From positions 64,927 to 128,926 of the forward strand of contig CAZVHP010000003.1 of NCBI GenBank assembly GCA_964627305.1: a stretch of DNA of 64,000 nucleotides, given 5' to 3'. Each line of letters starts with the position of its first letter. The first letter of the stretch is position 1. Both the position numbers and the translations under genes were made by a program. This document shows, one piece after another, positions 3,519 through 18,016 of this stretch. Below the pieces are notes generated by a model. The model saw only the letters and a list, made by a program, of their open reading frames with translations, did not search any database and was not told the DNA's origin. This DNA comes from an uncultured Ignavibacteriales bacterium. GTDB lineage: Bacteria > Zixibacteria > MSB-5A5 > GN15 > FEB-12.

Positions 3519-4787
3519 ATGAAGTCAAAGAAGACCATAGCAGTCTATAATAGGAAGAGTAACAATAGTCTTCGGCAGGCAGTCTCGGTAGCCGGTGCTG
3601 ATGATCGGAGTCTGCCGACGGCGGCTCGTCTGGAGCGGGTGCTGCGGTTGACGCCACCGGAAGTACATGAGGGGCGGCACCGCATCCGGCTGTATCGATT
3701 TCTGGCCGAGAGCATTCCCAGTGTGAGTGCCTGTCTGTGGACGTGGGTCCGTCTGACGGCCTCGCCGGCGCGCCTGGTGCCCGATGAGACAGCGCCATTG
3801 GCTGTGCAGGATCGGGCGCGGGCGGTGCTGGAGCAGTTGGCTCGTCGGTTGTATCCGAGGCCGCATAACCGTCATACCGATCTGAAGCGCCTGGTAACCG
3901 ATGTTTGTCTGCATTTGTATCGTGATGGTGGTTTCGGGGGTTTTCTGACCGTACTGGCTGACGGTTCCGGGGTTGACGGTGTGTTTCCGGTCGATCCGGT
4001 GCATATCGGCACGGACTACTCGCGCGGGCGGGTATCTTTGGTGCTGCAGACCGACACGAAGGCGGTGTCGCTGGACCGGCCGGATTTCTATCACCTGCCG
4101 ATGGGGGGCGGGGTTGATGATCCTTTCGGCCGTTCGCTGCTGGCGGGGATTCCTTTTGTGGCATATATCGAACAGCAACTGGTCGATGATATGCGCCGGG
4201 CGGTGCACAATGCCGGGTATCATCGGTTGCACGTGAAGATCACGCCGCCGGAGCGTCAGGCCGGGGAGTCGGACCGGGGCTATACTGAGCGGATCAATGA
4301 GTACTTTGATGCCACGGTGGGCATGATTCGTTCGTGTCGGACCGAGGACAATCCGGTGACGTGGGACAATGTGGCGATTGAGTACATCGGCCCGGGCGGG
4401 GTGCGCAGTCAGAGCAACAGTTGGTTTTTCAATCACCGGGCGATGATCGAGGAGATCTGCGGGGGGATGAACCTGGCGCCGTTTCTTCTTGGCTATTCGT
4501 ATGGTGCCACCACGACCTGGTCGGCGTTCAAATTCGATCTGGTCATGCGGCAGGTGCATACGGTGCAGCAGCAGGTAGCATCATTTCTGGAGTGGATTGG
4601 AAATATTGAGCTGGCCCTGCGGGGGGTGCCGGTGTCGTGCCGTGCGGAATTCGAAAACAGCTTCAGTTATCAGGCGAAAGAGCAGGCGGAGATTCAGTCG
4701 CGGCGGACCGACGGCCTGCTGAAGCTGTACGAGGCGGGGTTGATCGATGAGGTGATGGCGAAAGCGCAGGCGGCGAAGCTTCTCTGA
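3519..4787 (+). CDS. putative phage portal protein
   Basis: 422-aa ORF with an AAGGAGGG RBS, ending 1 nt before the terminase gene. Size, position and overall sequence pattern fit a portal. No single diagnostic motif was verified. Confidence 0.55.
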   Translation: MKSKKTIAVYNRKSNNSLRQAVSVAGADDRSLPTAARLERVLRLTPPEVHEGRHRIRLYRFLAESIPSVSACLWTWVRLTASPARLVPDETAPLAVQDRARAVLEQLARRLYPRPHNRHTDLKRLVTDVCLHLYRDGGFGGFLTVLADGSGVDGVFPVDPVHIGTDYSRGRVSLVLQTDTKAVSLDRPDFYHLPMGGGVDDPFGRSLLAGIPFVAYIEQQLVDDMRRAVHNAGYHRLHVKITPPERQAGESDRGYTERINEYFDATVGMIRSCRTEDNPVTWDNVAIEYIGPGGVRSQSNSWFFNHRAMIEEICGGMNLAPFLLGYSYGATTTWSAFKFDLVMRQVHTVQQQVASFLEWIGNIELALRGVPVSCRAEFENSFSYQAKEQAEIQSRRTDGLLKLYEAGLIDEVMAKAQAAKLL

Positions 4788-4788
4788 C

Positions 4789-6126
4789 ATGAAGCCGGGA
4801 AGTGTTGACTGGCGGCGATGTCTTGGCGACCCGGCGCATTTCGCGCGCGAGGTTCTCGGGCAGCGGCTGCATCCGGGGCAGGCGGCGTGGCTGACCAATT
4901 CGCGGTGTCGGGAGAATCTGCTGGCGACCGGTAATCGGTGGGGGAAATCGTTCGTATCGGCAGTGAAGCTGGTGCATGCCGCGCTGTTTCGGGTGCGTTC
5001 GACCCGTTTCGATGGATCGGGACGCTACCGGGCCGTGGTGGCTTCGATTACCCAGGAGCAGGCGAACCTTGTGTTCGATCAGGCCGTGCGGCTGGTGCAC
5101 CAGTCGCCCCTGCTGGCGCCACTGGTTGGCTCGCTGGTGCGGACGCCCTTTCCGCGCCTGACTTTGGGTAATGGCGCCACCATTGAGTCGCGGTCTACCC
5201 AGAACAGGGGGCAGTATCTGCTGGGCAATGATTATGACCTGTTCGTGTTCGACGAGGTGGCTTTCGAGAGCGACGCCGAGTATGTGGTCGAGGAGGTCAT
5301 CCAGATGCGACTGGCTGATCGTGAGGGGCGGCTGGACCTGGTATCGACTCCCAATGGCAAGAACTGGTTCTACAGGCGGGCGTGCGAATTGCAGTCAGGG
5401 GTGCGTCGGGGTTACTACCAGACGGGCGACAGCCGGGAGAATGTTGCCATATCGAGGCGGTTTCTGCACGAGCGGGTGCGTTGTTTTTCGGAGCGACGGG
5501 TTCGCCAGAACATCATGGGGCAGTTCGTGGACAGCGGCGGGGAGGTCATTCCCGGTGCTCATGTCGACCTGGCGCTGGCGCTGGAGGCGCGGTTGCGGCG
5601 TCGGGGCACGGCGGAGTCAGTCGGCGAAGGGCGCTATGTGACCGGCTGGGACCTGGCGCGCAAGCGGACGGCGACTGTGGGCGTGACGGTGGCCCTCGTG
5701 GACGGGGTTGCGCGGGTCGTGGCGCTGGAGCGTTTTCAGCACCTTGACTGGCAGGTGGTGATCGAACGAATCAAGGCTCGTCAGCGGGGCTATCCGGGGC
5801 AGTTGGTTCTGGATGCAACCGGGCTGGGGGATGTTATTGCACAGCAGCTTGCCGAATACAATCCGCTGTGTTTCGTGTTCACGCCGGTGAGCAAATCGGA
5901 ACTGCTGACCAATCTGGAGGTGATACATGCCCAGCGGCGAATCGCATACGGGCGCTGGGAGATTGCCGACAGTCAGGGGAGGGTATGGTCGCTGGAGGAC
6001 GAGTTGCGGCAGGCGCGATGGGACGATAACAGCGAATGCGATGCGCTTATGGCGCTGGCCCTGGCGGTGTGGCCCCTGCACAGAGGAGGCCGGGCGGCCG
6101 TTCAGCCTCGGGTAGGACGCATTTGA
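4789..6126 (+). CDS. phage terminase large subunit
   Basis: Walker A-like LATGNRWGKS and Walker B DYDLFVFDEVAF. C-terminal RNaseH-like nuclease acidic motifs (GWDLARKRT, VLDATGLGD, ECDALMALA). Confidence 0.75.
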   Translation: MKPGSVDWRRCLGDPAHFAREVLGQRLHPGQAAWLTNSRCRENLLATGNRWGKSFVSAVKLVHAALFRVRSTRFDGSGRYRAVVASITQEQANLVFDQAVRLVHQSPLLAPLVGSLVRTPFPRLTLGNGATIESRSTQNRGQYLLGNDYDLFVFDEVAFESDAEYVVEEVIQMRLADREGRLDLVSTPNGKNWFYRRACELQSGVRRGYYQTGDSRENVAISRRFLHERVRCFSERRVRQNIMGQFVDSGGEVIPGAHVDLALALEARLRRRGTAESVGEGRYVTGWDLARKRTATVGVTVALVDGVARVVALERFQHLDWQVVIERIKARQRGYPGQLVLDATGLGDVIAQQLAEYNPLCFVFTPVSKSELLTNLEVIHAQRRIAYGRWEIADSQGRVWSLEDELRQARWDDNSECDALMALALAVWPLHRGGRAAVQPRVGRI

Positions 6127-6191
6127 AATCAGAAGGGGATGAGGGGATGTTCTCTGAGTGTCCGAGTCTGCGTACCGTCCCGGCCTTTGTT

Positions 6192-6237
6192 GAAAAGAGG
6201 AAACGCCTTCTTAGTGGAAGGTCACCTGGGAAGGCGT
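6192..6237 (-). terminator. hairpin terminator candidate for the small PEP-CTERM gene
   Basis: ACGCCTTC (6203-6210) pairs with GAAGGCGT (6230-6237). On the reverse strand it is followed by the T-rich tract TTCCTCTTTTC. Confidence 0.4.
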
Positions 6238-6276
6238 CTCGGGATAGGGGGGGAAGTCTTTCCCGCGACTGTCCGC

Positions 6277-6582
6277 TTATTTGTTCCGTCGCGCCAGATA
6301 GATCCCAGCCAGGCCGGTCGCCATCAGGATCAGGGTGGTCGGCTCGGGAACAGCAGGCGGATCGTCAGAGTGATGATTCGTCACATGCCCGTCGGGAGTA
6401 AGCGCAGTCATGTCATATACATACTGAGTCGTAATGGTCCCGTCGGGACCGGTTGGCGTGCCGCCTTTCACGAAATTGAAACCATGAACGTCGGAAAAGG
6501 TCACGCCCAGCGCCAGCATGAAGACCAGTAACGCTATGATCCACTTGAACGGATGTGATGCCTTGGTCTGGGTTTTTCTCAT
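6277..6582 (-). CDS. small PEP-CTERM sorting domain-containing protein
   Basis: ATG 6582 has AGGTG 6 nt upstream, while the ORF track starts at TTG 6612. N-terminal hydrophobic signal WIIALLVFMLALGV. C-terminus VPEPTTLILMATGLAGIYLARRNK. Confidence 0.75.
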   Translation of the reverse strand: MRKTQTKASHPFKWIIALLVFMLALGVTFSDVHGFNFVKGGTPTGPDGTITTQYVYDMTALTPDGHVTNHHSDDPPAVPEPTTLILMATGLAGIYLARRNK

Positions 6583-6838
6583 AATCGCACCTAAGTTGTT
6601 GGAAACAGACAAACTACCTCATTCGATACCAAAGCAATCGCGGTGCCGTTAGGGGTGCGGCTGGCATCTTGAGGTCGTATGTTCTTGCTCCACAAACTGT
6701 TAACACATTCCTAACAAAACAGTACTGATTTGGTGGCGAATATCAGATAATGCACTACTTTGCACACAATTACTACAACTGTGCAGCAATTGGCCTGAGG
6801 GGCGGCATTGGTAAAGGAGACAACAGATTGGAGCCCAT

Positions 6839-8434
6839 ATGGATGAGCGCATAGGACGGATTGTCGCCCGGCTTTCGGAGGGGGATACTCCGGGGGTTGA
6901 GGCGGAACAGATTGATCGTATCAATCGGAATGTCTCGCCGGAGCAGCCGGTGCGTGCGGGGGAGGTTTACATCCGGCGAATGCTGATTTTATCGGACCGG
7001 GTTAACAGCTTTGGTGGGCGTTTTCCGGCCGAAGAACATGCCCGTCTGGCCGAGTTGCTGGTGGACTCGCCGGTGCTGATCGGTCACCGCAAGGACAGTC
7101 TGCCGATCGGGCGGACGTTCCACGCGGAGTGTGTCAGTCGTGGGGGCATCCGCTGGGTGCTGAGTTACTTCTATTGGCTGAAGGCTACCCGTGGAGCTGA
7201 GGATTTGCGGCGGCAGATTGATCAGGGGATTGTCAAGGAGTGTTCGATTGGGTTCGTATTCGGGCGGGCGGAGTGCTCCATTTGCGGGTGCGATATCCGC
7301 GAATGCGAGCATGAGCCGTTGGCGAGCTACCGCGTGAGCGGGGTCGAGCGCCGCTGCTGGTTCGACTATCGGGACATTCGCAAAGTATTGGAGACCTCGC
7401 TGGTCTACCGCGGGGCGACTCCGGACACGCGGGTGGGCAGCGAACTGGCCGAGGAGTCGGTCATCGTGCCGGTTCTGCAAGCGGGCGCGGGAGAGAATGA
7501 TGCGCCGGCACAACCGGAACCCCTGATGATGGAAGCGCTCAACCCCGTGGAGCGGTGCCTGGTGATGCCTCGTTATGACGGGGTGCCGGTGCGGTTGCAG
7601 ATTGGGGAATCGAAGGTTGTACTGATGTCGGTCGAGGGGCGACAGCTCGCGGACATGGGCGGGGTCGTGTCTTGCAGCCGAATGCATGGGGGTGCGACCG
7701 AAAGCCTGCCGGACGACTCGTGCGAGAACACGCGGGCTGTCACACTGGCCGGTTTGCTGGTGGGGTATCGCGGCAAATCGCGCTGCCCCGTTGAGCAGGT
7801 GCAACGCTACCTGCACGGTCTGCCGGGACCGGTCACGCGGCTTGCGTTGATGCTGTGGCCGGGTCAGCAGGGGCAGGTTCATCTGCGGTCGCGCGGTGCG
7901 CTGTCGATCCGGGTCATGCCGCACGAGTGTGTACGGGTGCACCAGTTGCCGGGGGCGGTGGCGCGAGTGAGCAGCCGCGACGGCGGGTGGGTGTGTCTGC
8001 TCGATTCACCGCCGCGGGTGTTCGCGGTGAGCGGGAGCGACCTTGAACGGGCCGGTGGCAGTTTCGGCTGGCTGGTGCAGGCGGAGAGCGCGGTGTATCT
8101 GCTGCTGGCCGACGGCAAGGGGACGCAGTGCTGGCGACTGGCCGGGGCGGACCTCGGTTCATTTGGTTGCGGGCGTGGCCGTGGTTGTCTGGCCGAACGG
8201 ATGGAGGCACCGCCGGACGATGTCGGGGTGGGTGCGTATGTCGGCGCGCCGGTGATGACCCGGCGGGGAACACAGGGCGCGTGGCGGCTGGAGGCGTCCG
8301 AGGCGTCATTCGACGGGATGAGCCTGCGGCCGATTGTGCTCAGGGGGTGCGTGAGGCACCTGCTGCGGCCGGGCGCGGGTCAGGTCGCCGGCGGGAGTTT
8401 CACGAATGAAGAAGGTGATTTGGATGAGAAGTAA
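6839..8434 (+). CDS. HK97/S78-type prohead protease domain fused to a ~290-aa C-terminal extension (scaffold-like?)
   Basis: N-terminal third shows the S78-like pattern PVLIGHRKDSLPIGRTF ... IVKECSIGFVFG (His and Ser motifs), followed by a Cys/His cluster CSICGCDIRECEH. The rest has no motif I recognise. Confidence 0.6.
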   Translation: MDERIGRIVARLSEGDTPGVEAEQIDRINRNVSPEQPVRAGEVYIRRMLILSDRVNSFGGRFPAEEHARLAELLVDSPVLIGHRKDSLPIGRTFHAECVSRGGIRWVLSYFYWLKATRGAEDLRRQIDQGIVKECSIGFVFGRAECSICGCDIRECEHEPLASYRVSGVERRCWFDYRDIRKVLETSLVYRGATPDTRVGSELAEESVIVPVLQAGAGENDAPAQPEPLMMEALNPVERCLVMPRYDGVPVRLQIGESKVVLMSVEGRQLADMGGVVSCSRMHGGATESLPDDSCENTRAVTLAGLLVGYRGKSRCPVEQVQRYLHGLPGPVTRLALMLWPGQQGQVHLRSRGALSIRVMPHECVRVHQLPGAVARVSSRDGGWVCLLDSPPRVFAVSGSDLERAGGSFGWLVQAESAVYLLLADGKGTQCWRLAGADLGSFGCGRGRGCLAERMEAPPDDVGVGAYVGAPVMTRRGTQGAWRLEASEASFDGMSLRPIVLRGCVRHLLRPGAGQVAGGSFTNEEGDLDEK

Positions 8435-8738
8435 TGATCGGCACGAGGCGAGCGGCTGGTTCAATTATCACTTGCCGGGCCTGATCACGGTCGTGGTCAG
8501 TATGGTGGCGGCCTACTTCCTGACGATTCAGTCGCTGAAGGTGGAGCTGGCGGCCAAGGCAGAGGGCGTGATGGTTGAGACGCTGGATCGGAAGCTGGCG
8601 ACCTTCGAGGTGCTGCTTCGTGAGGGGGTGGTCAGCCGGGAGCAGTTCTATCAGTTCTCGCGGCAGGTGGAGTCGCGGCTGTCGCGGATTGAATACTATC
8701 TCAAAGAGCAAACAGGGGGCAGGTGTGAAGAACCATGA
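8406..8738 (+). CDS. hypothetical single-TM coiled-coil protein
   Basis: One TM helix (LPGLITVVVSMVAAYFLTIQSL) followed by helical sequence. It overlaps the 3' end of the protease gene by 29 nt. The start is uncertain (8406 or 8424). Confidence 0.4.
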   Translation: MKKVIWMRSNDRHEASGWFNYHLPGLITVVVSMVAAYFLTIQSLKVELAAKAEGVMVETLDRKLATFEVLLREGVVSREQFYQFSRQVESRLSRIEYYLKEQTGGRCEEP

Positions 8739-8748
8739 GTCACAGCAG

Positions 8749-9228
8749 ATGGCAACGGTATCGGAAACGGCGCGGGCGATTCGAGGGGCAGTGGAGCTGA
8801 TCCGAGACGAATCGCTGGCGGTGATGGATTTCGATGAGCTGTGTGGCCGTCTGGAGGCGGCATCGTTGATGCTCGGGCGGCTGGACCGGGCCGAGGCAGA
8901 ACTGGCGGTGCTCAGGCAGGACCTCACGGGTCGCATTGCGGGGATGGCGCGGGCCTCGGCGGTTGCGCGCGGCACGCGGCGTGATCTGGAGACGGCAAGC
9001 GAGCTTACGGAGCGTCTGCCGCTCATGTCGGCGCGGGAGCTGGTGCGGTGTTATGGTCGGGTAGCGGCCCGATTCCGGGATACATTCCCGGCCAGCATGT
9101 CAGCGGTGACATCGTGTACGCGAACACCACACGGGCAGTGGCGCAGAACCGATGAACACACCGCGCCTTTGCAACAGGCACTGACGGGGTTGGTAGACGA
9201 CACGAGGGACCATCGGTCCCGGCCATGA
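8749..9228 (+). CDS. hypothetical helical protein (scaffold-like position)
   Basis: Internal ATG of ORF 8575..9228. MATVSETARAIRGAVELIRDE... is Ala/Arg/Leu-rich and helical. It sits between the protease and capsid genes. Confidence 0.4.
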   Translation: MATVSETARAIRGAVELIRDESLAVMDFDELCGRLEAASLMLGRLDRAEAELAVLRQDLTGRIAGMARASAVARGTRRDLETASELTERLPLMSARELVRCYGRVAARFRDTFPASMSAVTSCTRTPHGQWRRTDEHTAPLQQALTGLVDDTRDHRSRP

Positions 9229-9346
9229 GGGAGTATCTCCCGGCCGCAGGATGTGTGTGGGCAGCATCGCTCAGGACGTTTGAGCCTGAGCGAGAATATG
9301 AGCAAGAGCATGAACATGAGAATGAAGCAAAACGGGGGCAGAACCC

Positions 9347-9760
9347 ATGACAGTGAGAGAACAGAATCTGGACACGATTGCGCCGGTGCTGGCGACATTC
9401 GAGGTCAATCGAACGACTGGAACAGATGATCTGGCAGCAGATGACATCGGCTGCGCGGTGACCCTGACCAGCGGTGGCAAGGCTACGGCTATCGGCGCGG
9501 GGGAGGTGCTGGTCGGGCGGCTGATCAGTGTGACCACGCGCGAGAACGAGGCGACGCTGGCGACGGTGCAGGTGGGCGGAATCTGCCGTCTGGCGATTTC
9601 GACTACGTATCCGCAGGTGGGCGACCGCGTCGTAGGCGGCGCGGCCGGAACAGTGAGACAGGCTCCGGCGGTTGCCAGCGACCCGGCGGGGGGCAATGTG
9701 GCCCGCGGCACGGTGCTGGCGGTCAACGGCACCACTGATGCAGTAATCCTGCTGAATTAG
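9347..9760 (+). CDS. DUF2190-like head decoration protein candidate
   Basis: 137 aa, immediately upstream of the capsid gene. It has a Gly/Val-rich beta pattern (VLVGRLISV...VQVGGICRLA...VGDRVVGGAAGTV), as in DUF2190 capsid decoration proteins. Confidence 0.5.
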   Translation: MTVREQNLDTIAPVLATFEVNRTTGTDDLAADDIGCAVTLTSGGKATAIGAGEVLVGRLISVTTRENEATLATVQVGGICRLAISTTYPQVGDRVVGGAAGTVRQAPAVASDPAGGNVARGTVLAVNGTTDAVILLN

Positions 9761-9774
9761 GGAAAGGAGCATCC

Positions 9775-10878
9775 ATGGATTTCGAACGATTTCTTAACAG
9801 CGAGGCCCTGAGTCGTCTGGAGGGGGCGATCAGCAGCGACAGTGGCGGGGTGCGTTGCGATCTGGACCGGGCGGCGAGCCTTGAAATTACCCGTGAGCAG
9901 TATCAGGAGGCGGACAACCGCGGGTTGACGCTTTCGGAGCTTCTGGAGGCGGATGAGTATGATCCCTCGCCGGTCGGTTCCACACTGGATGCATTCGAGC
10001 GGCAGTTGCTGCTGGCCGGGATTCGGTTGGGCGGCAAACAGCCGACGACGGTGGAGCAGTTCTATCATCAGGCGCCGGCGTTGTTGCCGGAGTTCATGCG
10101 CCGGGAGATTCGTCGTGGTCAGGCGATGCGCCCGGAGGTAGGCAAGCTGGTGGCCAATAGCTCGACGGTGGCCACGAATCGCTACACGCCGTTTCATGTT
10201 GACACCTCGGAGGCCGCGAGGTTCTCGCTGCGGCCGATTGGTGACGGGGCCGAGGTGCCCTCGTTGATTGTCACCGAGCAGAACCACGCGCTGTCTGTCA
10301 CTGACTACGGTTTGGCGCTGAAGGCCAGCTACAAGGCGCTTCGCTACCGCACGACGGCGCAGTTCCGGGTGTTGCTGTGGTATATCGGGTTCAAGCTGCA
10401 GACGGACAAGCTGGCGCTGCTGGTGGACTGCATCATCAACGGCGACGGCAATGACAACGCCGCCGGGGTGATCGAGACGGCGACCAGCGGTACTCTGGCC
10501 TATGAGGACCTGATTTCGCTGTGGGCGCAGTTTTCGCCCTTCGAGATGAACACGATCATCTGCCACGTCAACCAGATGAAGGCGATTCTGACGATGGACG
10601 AGTTCAAGGACCCGATGGCGGGGTATCGCTTCCAGCAGAAGGGGGACCTGTTCAGTCCGCTGGGAGCCTCGCTGGTGCGTTCCGACGACGTTGTCGGTGA
10701 CCTGGTGGTCGGGCTGGATCGTCGCTTCGCAGTCGAGGAAGTCATCACGCAGCCGCTTACAATCGAGTATGACAAGGTAATCGAGCAGCGGTTTGAGGAA
10801 GCGGTGATTACCGAATCGGTCACGTATGCGAAAGTGATCAGCGACGCCTCCGTGGTGCTGGACGTCACTCACGGCTGA
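9775..10878 (+). CDS. HK97-fold major capsid protein
   Basis: 367 aa, positioned after the protease and decoration genes. The sequence pattern is typical of HK97-type MCPs (e.g. YGLALKASYKALRY, C-terminal ...EAVITESVTYAKV). Confidence 0.7.
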   Translation: MDFERFLNSEALSRLEGAISSDSGGVRCDLDRAASLEITREQYQEADNRGLTLSELLEADEYDPSPVGSTLDAFERQLLLAGIRLGGKQPTTVEQFYHQAPALLPEFMRREIRRGQAMRPEVGKLVANSSTVATNRYTPFHVDTSEAARFSLRPIGDGAEVPSLIVTEQNHALSVTDYGLALKASYKALRYRTTAQFRVLLWYIGFKLQTDKLALLVDCIINGDGNDNAAGVIETATSGTLAYEDLISLWAQFSPFEMNTIICHVNQMKAILTMDEFKDPMAGYRFQQKGDLFSPLGASLVRSDDVVGDLVVGLDRRFAVEEVITQPLTIEYDKVIEQRFEEAVITESVTYAKVISDASVVLDVTHG

Positions 10879-10931
10879 GTTACTGCCCCCGGGGTCTGAC
10901 GTATCAGGCTCCGGGGGGCGGAAAGGATGTT

Positions 10932-12344
10932 ATGAAGAAGCTTCTGACGACAACGACAGCCTCGCACAGCCTGGCTCCGCCGGGGGCGCGTCGGCTGCTG
11001 CGGGTGCGATCGGGCGCGTATGCCGAGCGGCTGGTGGCGCTTCTGCACACGGCGCCGCATGAGCTGTATGTCGCCTGGGCCGATCCGCCGTACGAGGTCT
11101 GGTCGACGCCGCAGCTTGCGGTCGATGACCTCGCGGACCGGGGAGTTGACGCGCTCATGACCGATGCCGGGGATATCCAGATCATATATACGGAGTGGGC
11201 CTCGAGTTTTATCAAGACGGTCAGGATGGCCTTCGTCGAGGGGGCCTGGAGCGCCGGGTCACCGGTGGTGGTCTGCAATACCGGGCTGGCGACCGGCCCG
11301 ACCATTGCCCGTGACAGTTCCGGGGCGATGTGGGCGGCATTTGTCAGGCTGGACGGTCCGTTCAGGTATCTGCATGTGAAGCGTTCGATCGACGATGGCG
11401 CCACCTGGGGCAGCGGACCCGCCGATGAGGGAACCGTGCTGACCAGCGGCGTGTCTCAGGTCGATGCGAAGCTGCTGAGCGGCGCGAACGCCACCTGTCT
11501 GGTGTACACGCAACTCAACACCGAGCTGGTCATGCGCAGTTGTGAGACCGGCGGCAGTGCCTGGAGCGAGGCGTATGTTGTGGTGAGCGATCCGGTGGTG
11601 GATGAGCACTTCGATGCCGCGGTATCGCCGGGCGGAATGTTGGGAATCGTGTATGACTCGGGGGATCTTCGCTATCGCGAGTTCAACGGGGTGAACTGGT
11701 CGACGATTGCGGTGATCGATGCCGGCGGCGGCAGCTATCCGCAGTTGCGGTTTGAGGGGGAAGTGCCGGTGGTGTTCTACCTGAGCGAGTTTGCTGCGGA
11801 TCATAGGCTACTGACTTACAGCCATCGTCGGACCGGCGCGTTCAGCCTGCCGGAGACAGTCGATCCGCAGACCGGGGTGTTTGACGCGGTGGTGCTCTAC
11901 AATCAATTGAGCGCGTCATACGCCAATCTCACGTCCGAGGCTGCCGACGCTGCCCCGGCGGACATGGTGCACCCGGATTCCTCAGCGCTGGTGGCGCATC
12001 TCGGCGACGCGGTCTACCTGGGGCGTGACAAGCGCTTTCGGCTGGTGCGTGTTGACCTCAGTACGGCAGGTAGTGGCGGCGCTACGGCCGCAAGCTATTT
12101 TGACGGCAGCCAGTGGCGATTTTTCACGCCGGTAACCGGAAACTGCGAGTTCAACGCCAGCACGCAACTGGTGGTGCTGTTTCAGGACGATGAGGATCTA
12201 CCGGACGAGTGGCAGCGCACGACGGTTAACGGTCAGTTGCGCTACTGGGTGCGTCTGGTGGTAACCTCACCGTATGCGACGCCTCCGGTCGGCAGCCGGA
12301 TCACGGCAATCGGCGATGTGCAGGCTGTGCAGGTGGGGAGGTAG
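10932..12344 (+). CDS. BNR/Asp-box (sialidase-like beta-propeller) repeat protein
   Basis: Canonical Asp-box SIDDGATW at 11385-11408, plus degenerate blades (RDSSGAMW, ETGGSAWSE). Confidence 0.6.
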   Translation: MKKLLTTTTASHSLAPPGARRLLRVRSGAYAERLVALLHTAPHELYVAWADPPYEVWSTPQLAVDDLADRGVDALMTDAGDIQIIYTEWASSFIKTVRMAFVEGAWSAGSPVVVCNTGLATGPTIARDSSGAMWAAFVRLDGPFRYLHVKRSIDDGATWGSGPADEGTVLTSGVSQVDAKLLSGANATCLVYTQLNTELVMRSCETGGSAWSEAYVVVSDPVVDEHFDAAVSPGGMLGIVYDSGDLRYREFNGVNWSTIAVIDAGGGSYPQLRFEGEVPVVFYLSEFAADHRLLTYSHRRTGAFSLPETVDPQTGVFDAVVLYNQLSASYANLTSEAADAAPADMVHPDSSALVAHLGDAVYLGRDKRFRLVRVDLSTAGSGGATAASYFDGSQWRFFTPVTGNCEFNASTQLVVLFQDDEDLPDEWQRTTVNGQLRYWVRLVVTSPYATPPVGSRITAIGDVQAVQVGR

Positions 12345-12346
12345 CG

Positions 12347-13159
12347 ATGTCGTATACACATGTAGATGTTGTTCGGCACCACCTGGCGCCGCTGGGTGCG
12401 TCCGGCGAGGCGGTATATGACCAGATGGTGGTCGTTCCCGCAGACGGTGCGGTCCGCTTTTTTTCAGGCGAGGTTGCGGCCGAGTCGGTTGTGGTGAAAT
12501 CGGTACGAGACGGCCAGCGCGTGCGCCGGCAGCTTCAGCTCAGCGGCGATCAGGTGGCGGTGGTCTCGGGCCCGGTGGTGCCGGGGACGGTGGTGGTGGC
12601 GTCTGACAGCTCGCTGGGGACCGTGTATGTGGAGAACCGGGATTACGTGATAGAGCACAGCACCGGGATGCTGACGGTCAAGCCCGGCGGCGATATGACT
12701 GCGGGCATGACGGTGGTGGTGTGGTGCCTGCCGTACGTGGTGTATCAGCGGTCGGTTGACTACGCGCTCAATGCGACGAAGGCGGAACTGGTTCGGTTGA
12801 GTGGCGGTGGTATGATTGCGGGTGAGTTGGTGTGGGTGGACTATCGGCCGGTCTATGATGACTACACGGATGAGTTGATTGCTCAGGCGGTGACGGAGGC
12901 TAATGCCACGGTGGCGGCCGAAGTGGATCCGAGTCGGGAGTTCGGCACCGACCCGTTGCTGCAGGTGGCGGCGACGTACCGTGCTCTCGCGGCGGTGGCG
13001 CGCAGTACGGCGGGGCGACGGCTCGGGAGTGTTCGTGGTACCGGCGGCCAGGCGCAGGCGTGGCTGACGTTGGCCGGGCAGTACGCCGAGCGGGCGGACC
13101 AGTTGTTGCGGTCGTTCCGGCCGCCATTCGAGAATCCGGCCGTACCACGCAGAAGCTGA
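12347..13159 (+). CDS. hypothetical protein (possible head-tail connector region)
   Basis: 270-aa ORF with a GGGGAGG RBS, starting 2 nt after the upstream stop. No motif recognised. Confidence 0.5.
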   Translation: MSYTHVDVVRHHLAPLGASGEAVYDQMVVVPADGAVRFFSGEVAAESVVVKSVRDGQRVRRQLQLSGDQVAVVSGPVVPGTVVVASDSSLGTVYVENRDYVIEHSTGMLTVKPGGDMTAGMTVVVWCLPYVVYQRSVDYALNATKAELVRLSGGGMIAGELVWVDYRPVYDDYTDELIAQAVTEANATVAAEVDPSREFGTDPLLQVAATYRALAAVARSTAGRRLGSVRGTGGQAQAWLTLAGQYAERADQLLRSFRPPFENPAVPRRS

Positions 13160-13170
13160 AAGGGGGCACA

Positions 13171-13545
13171 ATGAACACTGGATTGGCACAGGTGACGGCG
13201 CGACGAATCTGGTTCGTGCCGCAGTTTCAGGTGTGGGGGCAATCGGGACTGGGCGCGGTGGACTGCCTGCTGCTGGAGCAGACCGGCTCGGCGCAGGGGA
13301 TGTTTTTCTTTCGCCGGATGTTGGGGGAACCCTCGCAGACAGTGCGGTTCGAGGACGTGGTCGACTTTCGCGGCAATGCGCTTCCGAGAAACCTCAACAA
13401 CCCGCGCGTGGTCATTCGAGACCGGTCGGATCGCCGGGTGTGGATTGTGGGGAGCGAGACGAGCGAATCGTTTCGCATTGCGCGGGACATGGCGGAGTCG
13501 GGCCCGGCGACGGTGGACCTGTTTGTCATCGAGCTGGGACCATGA
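13171..13545 (+). CDS. hypothetical protein
   Basis: Internal ATG 13171 of ORF 13060..13545, preceded by AAAGGGGG. 124 aa. Confidence 0.5.
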   Translation: MNTGLAQVTARRIWFVPQFQVWGQSGLGAVDCLLLEQTGSAQGMFFFRRMLGEPSQTVRFEDVVDFRGNALPRNLNNPRVVIRDRSDRRVWIVGSETSESFRIARDMAESGPATVDLFVIELGP

Positions 13546-13901
13546 GCATGACGAGCACGACGCGAACGACACGGCAGGGCAAGGCCGGCAAAGGCGGGAA
13601 CGGCGGCAGAGGCGGCAAGAGTGGGAAAGACGGGCGGCCGGAGGAGCTGAGGATGCTCGATGAGCTGATTCGTCGCAGTTACCGGGAGCTGCTGGCCACG
13701 ATCGGTGAGAACGTGAAGGTAGGAGACTTCATCAAGATGCTGGAGACGAGACACAAATTGATGCCAACCGGCGCCGACCAGCGGGAATTCTGGTCGATGC
13801 TGGAGAGGATTCGGCAAGAGACGCTTTCCGAAGATGGGGAGGCTGAGGCTGTTGCTGTTGAGGGTGGCACTTCGGTTGGAGGAGAGGACTCGCATGGGTA
13901 A
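13542..13901 (+). CDS. hypothetical protein with basic Gly/Lys-rich N-terminus
   Basis: ATG 13542 overlaps the upstream stop (ATGA). The N-terminus RQGKAGKGGNGGRGGKSGKDGR suggests nucleic-acid binding. The C-terminal tail is acidic. Confidence 0.5.
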   Translation: MSMTSTTRTTRQGKAGKGGNGGRGGKSGKDGRPEELRMLDELIRRSYRELLATIGENVKVGDFIKMLETRHKLMPTGADQREFWSMLERIRQETLSEDGEAEAVAVEGGTSVGGEDSHG

Positions 13902-14667
13902 GTCGCCGGCAATTATTGTGCTTCTGGTCTTGTTGCTGATGGCCCTGCCGGAACCGGAGGCCCTGGCGGCGGTGGATACGTTGCGGGGTACGGCGGATAT
14001 CGCGGACGCCATGCTGATCGGGTATACGAACTGCGTGGGGGAGATTTCTGATGAAGACTGTCGGCGATTCAACACCGGGGGTGCATCGTGGCTGAGTAGT
14101 GGCACGGTGGGTATTGGGCAGGAGAGTCGGACAGTGATTGCCCTGCCCGGATGGAACGGCATTGTGCCGGACTCGGCGAGGCTCGAGTTGTATTGTTTTC
14201 GCGAAGGGGATACGGTGGACCGGCGCGTCATGGCGTATCCGTTGACGACACCGTTCATCGAGGGTACGGAGCTGGACTATGGTGTCGGCAACTATCCGGA
14301 CCCGGACAGCGGCGTGACGTGGTATCACGCTTACCTTGATGTCGGCGATGGCGACTCGCTGAACTGGTCGACGGCCGGAGGTGACTACACGACGGTGGTG
14401 GCATGCACGGCCATCGTGGCGGATACGAGCGGCTGGGTGGTGTTTTCGCATTTCGAGCGGCTGCTGGCCTTGTGGGATTCAACCGGGATGGCCTATGGGT
14501 GCATCCTGATCAACGAGAACGCCTTTCCGGTTAACAGCACGCAGAAGAGTTTCTATTCCAGCGAGTCAGCCACGGGCCTGGGGCCGCGGGTGGTGCTGTA
14601 TCGCAGTGACGGATTGCGCGGATCGATGCGTCGTCGTCAGGCCGCGGCGATGCTGAATCATGAATGA
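13894..14667 (+). CDS. secreted protein, DNRLRE-like domain candidate
   Basis: ATG 13894 has a GGAGGAGAGG RBS and overlaps the upstream gene by 8 nt. Signal peptide MGKSPAIIVLLVLLLMALPEPEALA. The pattern SARLELYCF...VMAYPLT...GVTWYHA...LNWSTAGGDY resembles DNRLRE-type secreted domains. Confidence 0.55.
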   Translation: MGKSPAIIVLLVLLLMALPEPEALAAVDTLRGTADIADAMLIGYTNCVGEISDEDCRRFNTGGASWLSSGTVGIGQESRTVIALPGWNGIVPDSARLELYCFREGDTVDRRVMAYPLTTPFIEGTELDYGVGNYPDPDSGVTWYHAYLDVGDGDSLNWSTAGGDYTTVVACTAIVADTSGWVVFSHFERLLALWDSTGMAYGCILINENAFPVNSTQKSFYSSESATGLGPRVVLYRSDGLRGSMRRRQAAAMLNHE

Positions 14668-15878
14668 AGGATGGAAGGGGGTGCATCGTGATGGTGATGC
14701 GGCGGATAGCGATGCTGCTGGTGGGTCTGGTGGTTGGGTGGTCACTGGTGCAGGGTGCAATAGTGCGCAACGCGACGACCGGAGTGACGGCCGAGGACTC
14801 AGTGGCGGTGGCGTTCGGTGTGCTTGACAGTATCGGCAACCCGACGACGGCGGATTCGCTGGTGGTGGCGGTTAGCGGTCCATCGGGGGCGCTGGTGTTT
14901 CGTGACAGTGTCGCAATCGGCGACGGGCGGATCACTGCGGATACGATAACTGGTTGTCCGGTATACGCTTTTGCCGATCTTGCGGCAGGTCTCGGAGCCG
15001 ACAGAGCAGGCAGTTACCGGGTGTTGCTGGTGGCGAAGAACAGCGCGCTGAACCTTCAGACAGTACACCGAACGAGCTTCCAGGTAGTGAACCGACGGCT
15101 GGCGGAGGCGCTTGATCAGATTGATGACAGCGTGTGGGTTCGTGGCGGCGCCGTCGACAGCAACCGCACTGAGCAGGGCGCCGGCGATTCCTCGCAGATC
15201 GCGGCCTGGGTGTGGAACACGCCGCAGTCCGGGCATGTGCTGCCGGGGACATTCGGGAGCTATGTTGATGCGAACATCTCCGGGCTGGGGATGGGGGGCG
15301 GCGCCTATGCGGTGACGGTGGTTGCGTACGACTCGGTCCTGTCGCAACCGGTAGCGGGCGTGAGGGTAGCGGTGCGTAACCAGTCGCAGACGGCTTTGAT
15401 GGCCACCGCGGCGACCGACAGCGAGGGGGAGGTGTCATTTAATCTCGATGCCGGCGATTATGCCGTAGTAGCCACGGCTCCGGGATACCAGTTTGCCGCT
15501 GCACATACGCTAACGGTGCCTGGGGCCGCTACGGACACAGTGACCGGCGGCAGGTTTGATCCGGGGATGCCATCGCTTCCGGGATTATGCCGGGTGTACG
15601 GATATGTATACGGAATCGACGGGCGGCCGATCGAGGGGGCAAGAATCGAGGCGCGGCTTCCTGATGGCGTCAACGGGGCGAGTATCCTGATAGTGGCGCC
15701 GTTTGCCGTGGAGACGGACAGCGACGAGAGCGGGTACTTCTTTGTGGACCTGATACCGTCGGCTGAGCTGCAGCCGGTGGTAACAGACTACGAGATCACG
15801 ATCAGTGCCAGCGGCAGGACACTGTACCGCAAGCGTGTGACAGTGCCGTCACAGGCGGCGCTGTGGCTGGTGCCGTAG
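14664..15878 (+). CDS. secreted or anchored protein with carboxypeptidase-regulatory-like (prealbumin-fold) domains
   Basis: ATGA overlap with the upstream stop, with alternative GTG/ATG starts near 14688. Hydrophobic N-terminus RRIAMLLVGLVVGWSLVQGA. Two CarboxypepD_reg-like segments (VAGVRVAVRNQ...TDSEGEVSFNLDAGDYAVVATAPGYQ and GYVYGIDGRPIEGARIEARL). Confidence 0.6.
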   Translation: MKDGRGCIVMVMRRIAMLLVGLVVGWSLVQGAIVRNATTGVTAEDSVAVAFGVLDSIGNPTTADSLVVAVSGPSGALVFRDSVAIGDGRITADTITGCPVYAFADLAAGLGADRAGSYRVLLVAKNSALNLQTVHRTSFQVVNRRLAEALDQIDDSVWVRGGAVDSNRTEQGAGDSSQIAAWVWNTPQSGHVLPGTFGSYVDANISGLGMGGGAYAVTVVAYDSVLSQPVAGVRVAVRNQSQTALMATAATDSEGEVSFNLDAGDYAVVATAPGYQFAAAHTLTVPGAATDTVTGGRFDPGMPSLPGLCRVYGYVYGIDGRPIEGARIEARLPDGVNGASILIVAPFAVETDSDESGYFFVDLIPSAELQPVVTDYEITISASGRTLYRKRVTVPSQAALWLVP

Positions 15879-15945
15879 TGGGGAAGGCGGTAAGCAAAAG
15901 TGAGCGAATCACAGAACCGGAGATAACCGGAAGAAGGGAGCGAAG

Positions 15946-16257
15946 ATGGAGAAGCTGATTACGGAGCCGATTGGCTGGTTTGGCCTGTTGGGATCGATGG
16001 CGCTGATGGTGGTTGGGCATGTGGGGCGCAAGTACCTGTTGCCGTTTTTGACGGTTGGCAAGCGCCAGAAATACGCCGGGTTCGTGGCGATGATCGCCGA
16101 TGAGATTACTGACGATCTGCGCAACAAGTACCCTGACAAGCAATGGACCGAGTGGCTGGATGAGGCGGTCGATTTGCTGGTGGACATTTGTGAGGTCGGT
16201 CCGGATGTTGCGCGGCGGGCGATCAGCGCGGCGGTCGCGCGCCGTCAGGCCGGATAG
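15946..16257 (+). CDS. small single-TM protein, holin-like (tentative)
   Basis: 103 aa with a GGAAGAAGGGAG RBS. One N-terminal TM (GWFGLLGSMALMVVGHV) and a helical C-terminus. It is the last gene of the block. The holin assignment is only positional and architectural. Confidence 0.4.
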   Translation: MEKLITEPIGWFGLLGSMALMVVGHVGRKYLLPFLTVGKRQKYAGFVAMIADEITDDLRNKYPDKQWTEWLDEAVDLLVDICEVGPDVARRAISAAVARRQAG

Positions 16258-16365
16258 GGTCGCGGTCGGGTCAGCCTGCGTGACGGATGCCGGGCGGTTG
16301 CGCCGGGGGCGTGGCTGCCCGGTATTTGTCATAGTGGCGGGTTGTGGGGCGTGAGAATGGTTCAG

Positions 16366-17859
16366 TTACCGGTGTGCTGTTTGCTGGTCGGCAAAGAGCA
16401 ACCGGCGAAAGGCGATGATGTCCGCCGGCGTGAGGCGCTGGTCGCCATCGATGTCGCACGCGGCGGCACCGGCTTGTGGCACGGGGCCATCGAACAGAAT
16501 GAAAGCCGCCAGCAACTGCAAATCGACGATGTTGATGCTGCCGTCGCCATTGAGGTCATGATGGCCGACAGAGATGGCTGTCTGGGTTACATGTTCGACA
16601 GCGGACCCGGCGGCAATGACTGCGGGAAGGAGCTCGAGGTGAACGGTGATGGTGTCGGTGACCAGTTGTCGGCAGTAATCGGAGGCATGGATGACCAATC
16701 GGTGGCTTCCGGCGGTGGTGTCATTGAGGGCGACGCGCCAGGTCTTGTCGACGATACGTCCGGGGCCGTCGGTAAGATAGACATCGAAGAGATTGCGATC
16801 CGGATCGCTGGTATCGAGGTGCCATTGGATCATCTGACCGGAGGTGCCGCTGAAGGTGGTGTCGCCGGGCAGGCGAAGGTGGGGGGGGCGGTTGAAGCGC
16901 ACCCGGACATGGAAGTCGGCGGTGTCGGAGGCGTGTTCGTTGGTTGCAGCGAGACGGACGGTGAAGGCGGCATCCGAGGTAGCGTGGTACTCCCAATAGC
17001 GATCGTTGAGGTGTCCGGGACCCTCGACAAGGCTGAGGGGGGCCGGGCGGCGGTTCTGGTCGTGGGCACTCACGGCCAGCCGTATGGTTTGTGGCTCACA
17101 GAGGAAGATGGTGGTATCGCGGGGCGCGCGACAAGTGACGGTGGGTTTGAGGCCTCCGGCGGGACGCCCGGCGGAGAACAGGACAAGGCGGCCGGGCAAA
17201 TCGCAGTAGGCGAAATCGTTCATGTCGATCCAGACCTCCGGCGATCCCCAGTAATTGAAGCAGGTCTGGGGCACCGGGGTATGATCCAGGAAGAGAGCGA
17301 TGGAATCGTGCGGGGCGAGTTGGTTTCTGATGAAGACACCGGCGAAGAACGGCTCGCTTATGACCAGAGGGGTATCCAGCGGGATGTACAGCAGAAAGGC
17401 TCCGGAATGGGGGATGCGGATCTCTCGCGGCTGGCTGATGGTAATGATCTCTCCGGGTTCAGGGCGCCCCTTGCGATAGTGCACGGTGCTGATGTCGGCG
17501 GCGAGGGTGATTCGCCCGGGGGAAGGGAACTCAAGGGGCAGGCAGACCTCGGTGATGACGAAGGGGTAGGCCGCCGCGCCAAAGACTGCTTCGGGGTCCT
17601 GCCAGGCTCGGTAGAGTTCATTGCCGACAGTCCAGTGATAGAGGTGGTACATGGAGCCTTTGTCGTGGCGAACTATGCCCAGATCGTTGCGCAGGGCGAG
17701 GCGTCGGGACCGGATTTCGACGAAGTCGGGCGGCTGCTGGAGCGGCACGGCCAGCCCGCTCTTGTGCTGCTTCGCCGCACCGGCGGTGCCCGGTATCAGG
17801 AGGACAGAGATCAGGCTGATGACTGCGATACTGACAGCGATGATGGTCCGAGACGTCAT
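16366..17859 (-). CDS. secreted protein with C-terminal dockerin domain
   Basis: ATG 17859 with an AGGAA RBS gives the signal peptide MTSRTIIAVSIAVISLISVLLIPGTAGA. The C-terminus has two EF-hand-like dockerin repeats (DLNGDGSINIVD, DIDGDQRLTPADI). Confidence 0.75.
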   Translation of the reverse strand: MTSRTIIAVSIAVISLISVLLIPGTAGAAKQHKSGLAVPLQQPPDFVEIRSRRLALRNDLGIVRHDKGSMYHLYHWTVGNELYRAWQDPEAVFGAAAYPFVITEVCLPLEFPSPGRITLAADISTVHYRKGRPEPGEIITISQPREIRIPHSGAFLLYIPLDTPLVISEPFFAGVFIRNQLAPHDSIALFLDHTPVPQTCFNYWGSPEVWIDMNDFAYCDLPGRLVLFSAGRPAGGLKPTVTCRAPRDTTIFLCEPQTIRLAVSAHDQNRRPAPLSLVEGPGHLNDRYWEYHATSDAAFTVRLAATNEHASDTADFHVRVRFNRPPHLRLPGDTTFSGTSGQMIQWHLDTSDPDRNLFDVYLTDGPGRIVDKTWRVALNDTTAGSHRLVIHASDYCRQLVTDTITVHLELLPAVIAAGSAVEHVTQTAISVGHHDLNGDGSINIVDLQLLAAFILFDGPVPQAGAAACDIDGDQRLTPADIIAFRRLLFADQQTAHR

Positions 17860-18016
17860 AAGGTTCCTGTTGGTGGTCAGAAGTCTGTGGAAGGTCCTTT
17901 CTTTGATTATCGAACGGGATTGTGTTATACTTGATCGAAGCCGGCCGGATGCTGCTGTGCGGGTCATCTGTGCCTCCGGCGGCAAGGTGTTGGAAAGGGA
18001 AGGAACGACCGTATAG

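Follow-up and report, generated by a model that had tools for sequence, protein, structure and literature searches.

A phage-derived head gene cluster that looks domesticated in Zixibacteria and carries two predicted exported, sugar-binding-type proteins downstream of its capsid gene

Introduction

The gene transfer agent (GTA) of Rhodobacter capsulatus and other Alphaproteobacteria, RcGTA, is encoded by a chromosomal cluster of phage structural genes without integration or replication genes, which a large clade inherits vertically, at a conserved site and under purifying selection, and in which head genes are followed by neck and adsorption genes. To our knowledge, GTA-like domestication of phages is well documented in few lineages only. 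Here we describe a phage-derived head gene cluster of ~13 kb (positions 3519-16257) in a stretch of 64,000 nucleotides (hereafter the window; GenBank assembly GCA_964627305.1, contig CAZVHP010000003.1, positions 64,927 to 128,926 of the forward strand) from an uncultured bacterium of the Zixibacteria. The cluster encodes a portal-like protein, a large terminase subunit (TerL) and a major capsid protein. It looks like a domesticated, vertically inherited, GTA-like phage-particle element and not a prophage, and its distal genes encode two proteins with predicted export signals.

Exported proteins are known from phages as well. T5 Llp, Cor of phi80 and N15, spanins and endolysins with signal peptides are exported and act on the envelope of the producing cell, either for release or against trapping and superinfection. 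Phage-inducible chromosomal islands (PICIs) are mobile, with an integrase, attachment (att) sites and variable locations. In full-text searches we found no literature that links Zixibacteria with a GTA, a capsid, a prophage or a cluster of this kind. A preliminary description of the window, made from its letters and open reading frames (ORFs), had proposed that exported and carbohydrate-type proteins are translationally coupled to capsid genes in the position where tail genes are expected; the present analysis follows up this proposal.

Results

A phage-derived cluster at a fixed chromosomal site

The cluster consists of head, packaging and downstream genes only, has host genes on both sides, and contains no integration, replication or lysogeny genes. 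No integrase, att-like repeat or tRNA gene was found in the 64-kb window (the searches for att repeats and tRNAs were negative). The same host flanks surround the cluster in ~30 Zixibacteria-type genomes, and the 30 loci with full flanks share one gene order: TPR (- strand), PEP-CTERM (-), portal, TerL, a second PEP-CTERM gene (-), head genes, the gene chain downstream of the capsid gene, dockerin (-), radical SAM and RR-HD. Downstream of 16.3 kb and elsewhere in the window, the genes are those of an ordinary chromosome, such as ones for a radical-SAM enzyme, a response regulator carrying an HD domain, SbcC, activators of sigma-54, components of MacB efflux and a TonB-dependent receptor.

For the capsid protein, 856 homologues were found. 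Leaving aside an identical sequence, the best 120 of them share 68-76% identity with it, are nearly all ~367 aa long, mostly carry the name Zixibacteria or GN15, and lie on contigs of up to 2.8 Mb. The species-genome collection, which holds one genome per species and in which the taxonomy labels of metagenome-assembled genomes are heterogeneous, contains 288 matching places, complete Zixibacteria chromosomes among them. Records of the identical capsid protein exist in 52 blocks of the assembly collection, and its context was the same in all 24 contigs read.

Selection on the cluster was assessed from the ratio of nonsynonymous to synonymous substitution rates (dN/dS) in close genome pairs, which was 0.03-0.26 for the cluster genes, except for the gene at 13542-13901 (0.19-0.56). 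For the two exported genes the values were 0.13-0.26 (first) and 0.08-0.17 (second), compared to 0.06-0.16 for the flanking radical-SAM gene. Distances between cluster proteins followed those of this host gene (Mantel r: capsid 0.71; TerL 0.74; propeller protein, see below, 0.56; p <= 0.002), and the capsid protein is better conserved than the host protein itself. Fixed host flanks, low dN/dS and co-divergence with a host gene therefore indicate a domesticated element and not a prophage; the preliminary description had treated the locus as a phage, and that view has to give way to one of vertical inheritance.

Free-phage relatives in INPHARED and IMG/VR have only the portal protein, the N-terminal domain of a 531-aa head protein and the capsid protein in common with the cluster, at 21-35% identity. 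The genes that follow the capsid gene in these phages showed no relation to the propeller protein or to the 270-aa protein of the cluster in profile comparisons (hhalign), and single-sequence scans of IMG/VR with the capsid protein and with exported protein 1 gave no matches. An 11-kb contig that IMG/VR files as viral (IMGVR_UViG_3300027896_005586; our locus L088) is a divergent copy of the cluster (capsid 58% and propeller 31% identical) and has the PEP-CTERM gene embedded in it as well; domesticated loci of this kind may therefore be among the entries of virus catalogues.

A chain of closely packed genes downstream of the capsid gene

Behind the capsid gene lie a hairpin and seven genes, all on the same strand:

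10883-10921, + strand: GC-rich hairpin in the post-capsid spacer (minimum free energy -31.8 kcal/mol; z -4.3)
10932-12344, + strand: 470-aa protein, sialidase-type β-propeller followed by a C-terminal β-sandwich (AlphaFold2 model, mean per-residue confidence, pLDDT, 90)
12347-13159, + strand: 270-aa protein, β domains and a C-terminal three-helix bundle (AlphaFold2 model, pLDDT 84)
13171-13545, + strand: 124-aa conserved protein (53 loci, 121-125 aa, dN/dS 0.04-0.18)
13542-13901, + strand: 119-aa protein, basic low-complexity N-terminus and helical core (45 loci, mostly 83-132 aa)
13894-14667, + strand: exported protein 1, 257 aa, predicted Sec signal, DNRLRE/CBM96-like domain and Arg-rich C-terminal tail (alignment A7)
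14664-15878, + strand: exported protein 2, 404 aa (from 14664) or 395 aa (from 14691), predicted Sec signal (alignment A8)
15946-16257, + strand: 103-aa membrane protein that ends the chain (hydrophobic N-terminal segment in 31 orthologues)

All four junctions named in the preliminary description could be read directly from the DNA. The stop codon of the first ORF (TAG, 12342-12344) is followed after a 2-nt gap by ATG 12347; ATG 13542 overlaps the TGA (13543-13545) of the gene at 13171-13545 as ATGA; ATG 13894 lies upstream of the preceding stop (13899-13901), giving an 8-nt overlap; and ATG 14664 overlaps TGA 14665-14667. The last of these overlaps is present in the DNA, but 14664 may not be the start that is used: gene callers give either 14664 or 14691, and 14691 or 14697 is favoured because the orthologues start near the hydrophobic core. 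The earlier list of genes had skipped the 124-aa gene, even though ATG 13542 overlaps its stop.

Close packing at these junctions goes beyond chance, as the spacing is conserved across loci. The gap between the propeller gene and the 270-aa gene is 10 nt or less in 95% of 59 loci, and mostly 1-4 nt; that between the 124-aa-type and the 119-aa-type gene is 10 nt or less in 96% of loci. The 119-aa-type gene overlaps exported gene 1 in 73% of loci, mostly by 4 nt, whichever protein family fills the exported slot, and the gap from exported gene 1 to exported gene 2 is 10 nt or less in 59%. Shine-Dalgarno (SD)-like motifs precede most genes (exported genes: 54% and 79%, versus 15% of random positions). 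Only 11 of 45 orthologues of the 119-aa gene have an SD motif of their own, which is consistent with translational coupling.

Presence across the 30 full loci differs from gene to gene. The propeller gene was found in all 30 (mean identity 37.5%), the 270-aa gene in 29 (41%), the 119-aa gene in 26, and the last gene in 27, the latter by its C-terminal part only; the 257-aa family of exported protein 1 was found in 8. Co-conservation of the chain with the head genes, which the preliminary description had asked of related genomes, was thus upheld, and the chain did not prove independent of the head genes in relatives.

The coupling proposed for the capsid gene itself did not hold. The capsid stop (10878) is separated from ATG 10932 by a 53-nt spacer with a strong GC-rich hairpin, so that the chain is not coupled to the capsid gene. 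A hairpin lies in the same spacer in 97% of 61 loci, with differing sequences and a median z of -4.1. Because most of these hairpins, including that of the window, have no U-run, we can only infer a function as an attenuator or a stabiliser of the mRNA; the hairpin probably determines how much capsid protein is made relative to the products of the genes that follow. A sigma-54 promoter search and a count of shared 8-mers upstream of the first cluster gene revealed a ribosome-binding site only, and the scan for promoters and terminators was uninformative except for one terminator-like site past the last gene.

Two predicted exported proteins in the distal slots

Two consecutive + strand ORFs with signal-peptide-like N-termini follow the 119-aa-type gene in 39 of 42 loci. 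The pair is also present in two deep lineages (L121 and L122) in which the propeller is only ~33% identical. In the first ~20-26 residues of both families (14 and 25 orthologues, respectively), only the charge, the hydrophobic core and small residues at -3 and -1 are kept, and sequence conservation begins at the predicted mature ends, VDTLKG in exported protein 1 and IVNNS in exported protein 2. In the window, cleavage is predicted between ALA and AVDTLRG (exported protein 1) and between VQG and AIVRN (exported protein 2). Neither a lipobox Cys nor a twin-arginine motif was found in the N-termini of the pair. Both products thus carry genuine-looking predicted Sec signals of the signal peptidase I type, and the signal peptides suspected by the preliminary description stand, by a heuristic test, for both. 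By the same test, a hydrophobic N-terminal stretch with K/R before it, the orthologue sets of capsid, TerL, portal, propeller, 270-aa, 124-aa and 119-aa proteins scored 0%. Proteins of a podovirus tail would be free of export signals; both distal proteins have predicted ones.

Only one locus, L013, is truly without the pair; L076 and L078 are interrupted by assembly gaps. In L013 (13774-16400), the particle genes are intact and both exported genes, the small membrane protein gene and the radical-SAM gene are absent; a dockerin gene comes directly after the 119-aa-type gene.

The 257-aa exported protein 1 of the window matches the NCBIfam model DNRLRE_dom (NF033679) with E 2e-4 and 21.5 bits, below the cut-off of 34, and 10 of 14 family members match it at E <= 0.01 (best 3.7e-7), in line with the DNRLRE-like domain noticed earlier. 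Pfam gave nothing for this family, with CBM96 (PF24517) matching 0 of 14 members, and its profile had no meaningful match among PDB sequences. Cys47, Cys56 and Cys171 are invariant and Cys101 is nearly so. Elsewhere this slot is taken by proteins of other families (200-514 aa), each with a signal peptide; CBM96, described as an alginate-binding module (PMC9971899), exceeded the gathering threshold in 3 of 10 of these proteins, one of which also has a disaggregatase repeat. Across otherwise unrelated families, 24 of 39 slot-1 proteins have a C-terminus (14620-14667 in the window) of one pattern, in which a short linker joins a Y/T-rich β-strand to an RRRR-type run ~8 residues from the end. This tail could be a sorting, anchoring or binding signal; we know of no motif that matches it.

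Exported protein 2 contains the two CarboxypepD_reg domains seen before (PF13620; 54.9 bits against a cut-off of 32.3, in two stretches). Its N-terminal part is a signal peptide followed by a conserved Ig-like domain (IVNNS..EDS..DSLGN); the middle is variable (0-250 aa), with LDSLxxxLDTLQ coiled-coil and G-rich repeats; and the C-terminal part has a WVWNTPQ..GTFGxYLD motif and then the two CarboxypepD_reg domains, ending in SWxLTW. Among 1.84 billion representatives searched, 110 clusters matched at E <= 1e-30. Their proteins are mostly 200-860 aa and up to 1473 aa long, with the conserved part in every case at the very C-terminus, and some long relatives carry PKD, fn3 or polysaccharide-deacetylase modules. 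No relative was found in 50,697 phage records. The C-terminal domain did not co-vary with any particle protein (partial r 0.12-0.20).

Four products without an export signal

The preliminary description had set all of these products apart from tail parts as exported or carbohydrate-type proteins. This applies to the last two; the first four lack export signals and look like particle proteins. In the model of the 470-aa protein, residues ~20-300 form the β-propeller and ~320-460 the β-sandwich. The Asp-box reported earlier (SIDDGATW) is there, as a single conserved copy with invariant S152, D154, G156 and W159, and the match to Pfam BNR_2 is weak (E 3.3e-5; 23.8 bits, below the cut-off of 31.4). 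R33, Y86 and E250 are invariant as well, and several further Arg residues recur in at least 90% of sequences. With few exceptions, complete orthologues have 468-474 aa.

The comparison with tail folds that had been suggested for these proteins gave a divided answer. For the propeller, the top Foldseek match in the PDB was a portal-tail chain of the Legionella podophage LME-1 (E 1.5e-10; template modelling (TM) scores 0.32/0.22), but sialidases, lectins and lyases scored equally well, with TM of about 0.3-0.5 among these generic matches. The LME-1 paper describes a T7-like nozzle (PDB 9EFK; PMC12407071), and the matched 817-aa chain is taken as that nozzle for this reason. A fold search of BFVD found generic propellers in large phage proteins only, and the propeller profile had only a marginal sialidase match among PDB sequences. 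Weak matches of the 270-aa protein were enriched for virion parts of phages: a phi812 baseplate chain (2.6e-5), the YSD1 tail tube, the T7 gp17 N-terminus and neck proteins. NCBIfam (tail_tube_6XGR) and PHROG gave Ig-like matches for it, and nearly all complete orthologues are 269-270 aa long. Three of its homologues (P0158, P0191 and P0197) have a precomputed Pfam match to PF27730.

The 270-aa and 124-aa families had no meaningful profile match among PDB sequences, and neither PDB nor PHROG yielded a match for the 124-aa protein; PHROG and Pfam searches with lenient thresholds gave nothing usable for either of the two small proteins. The 119-aa gene has the highest dN/dS of the cluster. After removal of the capsid distance, the propeller, 270-aa and 124-aa proteins still co-vary (partial r 0.34-0.57, the highest value being that between the 124-aa protein and the propeller), which fits one complex. 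We infer that the four products are particle proteins at or near the portal vertex, where each may serve as nozzle, spike or adaptor.

The end of the chain and its surroundings

The chain is closed by the 103-aa membrane protein, with a terminator-like site at 16307-16320. A protein of this type follows the exported pair on the same strand in most loci, and by its position it may be holin-like. In L122, exported protein 2 is followed (8742-9137) by a 131-aa protein in which LAS/M15 zinc-peptidase-like motifs can be seen by eye (SAHLGRPCRAVD ... HIH); the guess that it is an endolysin found no support from PDB sequences or phage records.

Several further genes for exported proteins lie around the cluster. 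On the - strand, a PEP-CTERM exported-protein gene (2153-2923) sits directly upstream; a gene for a dockerin and DUF7451 protein with a signal peptide (16366-17859) converges on the operon end and keeps its place in 25 of 30 loci; and a third gene (21753-26654) encodes a large secreted protein of 1633 aa with a PQQ-type β-propeller and a C-terminal dockerin. All 2-kb bins of the whole window (1-64000) have a positive GC skew, which leads to many spurious long ORFs opposite real genes. The + strand ORF at 16342-17934 was rejected as a G-rich shadow of the dockerin gene.

Head and packaging genes

Upstream of the spacer, the cluster contains the following genes:

3519-4787, + strand: portal-like protein, 422 aa, first gene of the cluster (PHROG portal families phrog_3753, E 6e-16, and phrog_30703, E 9e-8, co-linear)
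4789-6126, + strand: large terminase subunit TerL, 445 aa (phrog_2, E 1.2e-31; Pfam Terminase_6N)
6277-6582, - strand: small PEP-CTERM exported protein, between the terminase gene and the gene at 6839 (precomputed Pfam match PF07589)
6839-8434, + strand: 531-aa head-morphogenesis protein (phrog_16951, E 1.7e-17)
8406-8738, + strand: 110-aa membrane protein within the head module, overlapping both neighbours
8725-9228, + strand: scaffold-like protein, ~140-167 aa (scaffold position; one orthologue with a weak Phage_scaffold match, E 0.017)
9347-9760, + strand: highly conserved small head protein, 137 aa (phrog_4588 'virion structural protein', E 9e-4)
9775-10878, + strand: major capsid protein, 367 aa (phrog_3922, E 1.4e-57)

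The portal-like protein was found in 26 of the 30 full loci (mean identity 52%), and its phage homologues in IMG/VR and INPHARED adjoin a capsid gene. TerL was found in 27 of 30 (61%; dN/dS 0.03-0.10). An encapsulin nanocompartment is ruled out by the presence and conservation of these two genes. The embedded PEP-CTERM gene has a homologue at the same place in 21 of 30 loci as well as in the divergent copy L088. The nearby ORF at 6139-6531 was rejected as a gene, with a homologue in 0 of 30 loci.

The N-terminal ~200 aa of the 531-aa protein are conserved and form a domain common to phage genes near portal and capsid genes. In this region (6839-7450 in the window), the alignment shows invariant H83 and S136 and a CxxC...CxH zinc-ribbon-like insert; by these motifs, the domain resembles an HK97-type prohead protease, an assignment for which Pfam and PDB sequences gave no support. 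The 110-aa membrane protein has K/R followed by a strongly hydrophobic N-terminal stretch in 98% of 66 orthologues; a membrane protein is an unusual component of a head-assembly module. The putative scaffold-like protein is conserved in 29 of 30 loci, and the 137-aa protein has a mean column identity of 76% and a dN/dS of 0.04-0.16. PDB sequence profile searches with the 531-aa and 137-aa families gave no meaningful match, and PHROGs and Pfam at lenient thresholds gave nothing usable for the protease, scaffold and small-head-protein guesses.

Discussion

We consider it highly probable that three things hold jointly: that the cluster is a domesticated element, that the export signals of the last two products are real, and that these two genes belong to the operon. 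What the exported pair does is a question on which our preference is tentative. The best explanation of the whole, to which we would give a little less than an even chance, is that the chain at 10932-15878 is the distal half of a domesticated particle operon whose exported pair acts in the envelope.

According to this explanation, the hairpin would probably lower read-through from the abundant capsid gene, after which 10932-13901 would encode cytoplasmic particle proteins, at least three of the four probably forming one complex (neck, nozzle or spike) at the portal vertex. The genes at 13894-15878 would then fill the slot where phages keep their fibre and host-recognition genes, just before a possible holin; they would be translated in step with the particle genes, and yet their Sec signals would route the products to the envelope. 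There, the pair might bind or loosen the surface or matrix polysaccharide of the producer itself when particles form, so that particles, probably released by lysis, would escape and not stay trapped on cell debris. The variable glycan-binding modules would track the surface chemistry of each species and the conserved C-termini would anchor in the envelope. That the pair acts on surface glycans during particle release is the mechanism we prefer, with a degree of confidence still slightly lower than that for the explanation as a whole. The glycan theme is suggested by the DNRLRE/CBM96 and disaggregatase-repeat matches and by the PKD, fn3 and polysaccharide-deacetylase modules of relatives. A precedent exists in phages: next to fibre or lysis genes, they may encode exported proteins that block a receptor or breach the envelope, examples being T5 Llp, Cor, spanins and secreted endolysins.

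A number of points weigh against this explanation. Particle formation, packaging and transfer are predictions from gene content here. Signal peptides were called by our own test of hydrophobicity and charge together with alignment patterns, not by SignalP, and the structure matches of the two modelled proteins, the propeller and the 270-aa protein, are generic or weak. Neither a small terminase subunit nor a tail tube was recognised in the cluster, the other loci of the genome not having been searched. Since the neighbourhood is conserved as a whole, co-conservation alone cannot tell operon members from neighbours; only conserved overlaps can. In L013, the particle genes are intact with the exported pair missing in cis. 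Loosening of polysaccharide is speculative because a catalytic domain cannot be recognised in most versions of the exported proteins, and their size, modularity and coiled-coil or β-helix-like inserts look more like those of fibres than of lysis helpers.

The last point leads to the strongest alternative, namely that the exported proteins are adsorption fibres which fold in the periplasm, aided by disulfides, and dock on DNA-filled heads at lysis. The position of the genes between the presumed neck genes and the terminal small membrane protein, which is the fibre slot, would fit such two-compartment assembly, and so would their overlaps with the preceding particle genes, the conserved Cys residues of exported protein 1, and the layout of exported protein 2, whose conserved N-terminal domain, hypervariable coiled-coil or β-helix-like middle and conserved C-terminal domain recall phage fibres. 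Beyond this pair, no obvious receptor-binding protein except the propeller is encoded in the cluster, and in T4 and P22, fibres and spikes can join the particles in vitro. Against it, the C-terminal domain of exported protein 2 does not co-vary with particle proteins, the protein has no relative among the 50,697 phage records, phage fibres are usually anchored by their N-terminus, and we know of no precedent for Sec-exported virion proteins in tailed phages or GTAs. We regard these fibres as unlikely. A somewhat wider version, in which such assembly takes place or the hypervariable exported proteins form a related kin-recognition pair, being the cognate surface receptor linked to the particle genes, gains a little and is still on the unlikely side.

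Less probable again is that the exported genes are hitch-hikers: ordinary surface adhesins or receptors that share a transcript or a neighbourhood with the particle genes and have no role in the particle, or, in a variant, that serve as the receptor of the particle on sibling cells. The neighbourhood is rich in syntenic genes for exported proteins (two PEP-CTERM, one dockerin/DUF7451), a signal peptide with a variable passenger and a conserved C-terminal module is typical surface-protein architecture, L013 does without the pair, and the C-terminal domain of exported protein 2 evolves independently of the particle proteins. What speaks against hitch-hiking is that the overlap of 4-8 nt with the preceding particle gene is found in 73% of loci and survives replacement of the family in the slot, that the pair is kept in deep lineages with different flanks, and that in most loci the small membrane protein that ends the chain follows it on the same strand.

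A conventional tail, in which all six products would be adaptor, nozzle and fibre proteins assembled in the cytoplasm and the hydrophobic N-termini would not be export signals, is improbable. It could call on the LME-1 chain, taken as a nozzle, as the top solved-structure match of the propeller, and on the weak matches of the 270-aa protein to the T7 fibre N-terminus and to neck and baseplate chains; generic sialidases and lectins match the propeller at least as well (TM about 0.3-0.5), the genes that a phage relative has behind its capsid gene show no similarity in profile comparison, and both distal proteins have the full signal-peptide pattern, including an AxA-type site, in more than 35 genomes. 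Least probable of all, and already largely refuted, is a decaying or mobile prophage or PICI-like satellite beside host genes for secreted proteins, which would agree with a small head-only gene set without a tail, as in capsid-forming satellites, and with the filing of L088 as viral by IMG/VR, but not with identical flanks in ~30 genomes, the absence of integrase, att repeats and tRNA from the window, intact ORFs of rigid length and low dN/dS, or co-divergence with a host gene.

If upheld, the retention of a capsid and terminase cluster at a single locus throughout an uncultivated phylum would be a further, independent case of phage domestication, from the Fibrobacteres-Chlorobi-Bacteroidetes (FCB) group, and would open a way to study gene exchange among sediment bacteria that have so far resisted cultivation. 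Sec-exported, hypervariable proteins of glycan-binding type in the fibre slot challenge the rule that tailed-phage particles are assembled in the cytoplasm, and under any reading they point to an undescribed link between particle production and the cell surface. Should the proteins turn out to be periplasmic fibres or a kin receptor, this would be an undescribed way of building or targeting a particle of the tailed-phage type; the feature could prove categorically new.

Set beside described systems, the cluster resembles each in part. With capsid-forming PICIs (cf-PICIs) it shares the format of a ~10-15 kb element that has its own head and packaging genes and no tail; unlike them, it is fixed, syntenic and co-diverging with host genes. 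The predicted sialidase-type β-propeller with an Asp-box, followed by a β-sandwich, recalls GH33 sialidases, BNR propellers and spikes of the phage endosialidase type, from which it differs by having one conserved Asp-box, a BNR_2 score below the gathering threshold and no signal peptide. The tail of T7-like podoviruses (gp11 adaptor, gp12 nozzle, gp17 fibre), including that of LME-1, is comparable in that its genes lie directly downstream of the capsid gene, that the top Foldseek match of the propeller is the LME-1 chain, and that the 270-aa protein weakly matches the N-terminal domain of gp17; these matches are at the level of generic folds (TM 0.2-0.3), the propeller of the cluster has 470 aa and the LME-1 chain 817, the gene order differs, no adaptor was recognised, and the distal proteins have predicted signal peptides. 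As in the case of T5 Llp, Cor, spanins and secreted endolysins, the exported genes are phage-derived genes at the distal end of a late region. Those proteins are small and form defined families, whereas the ones described here measure 200-670 aa (as much as 1473 aa among relatives), are hypervariable and built from modules (CBM96/DNRLRE, Ig-like, CarboxypepD_reg), and lack a lipobox. For an exported pair of sugar-binding type wired into a capsid operon, we could find no described counterpart. Overall, an RcGTA-type GTA is the closest system, as judged from gene content: like RcGTA, the Zixibacteria cluster is chromosomal, without integration or replication genes, vertically inherited across a large clade at a conserved site, under purifying selection, and ordered from head towards presumed neck and adsorption genes. 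Its proteins are unrelated to those of RcGTA and belong to another phylum, of the FCB group. As it has no tail tube or tape-measure genes, its particle, if tailed at all, would be podovirus-like, and it is set apart from known GTAs by the membrane protein of its head module, the PEP-CTERM gene on the opposite strand and the predicted Sec-exported proteins in its fibre slot.

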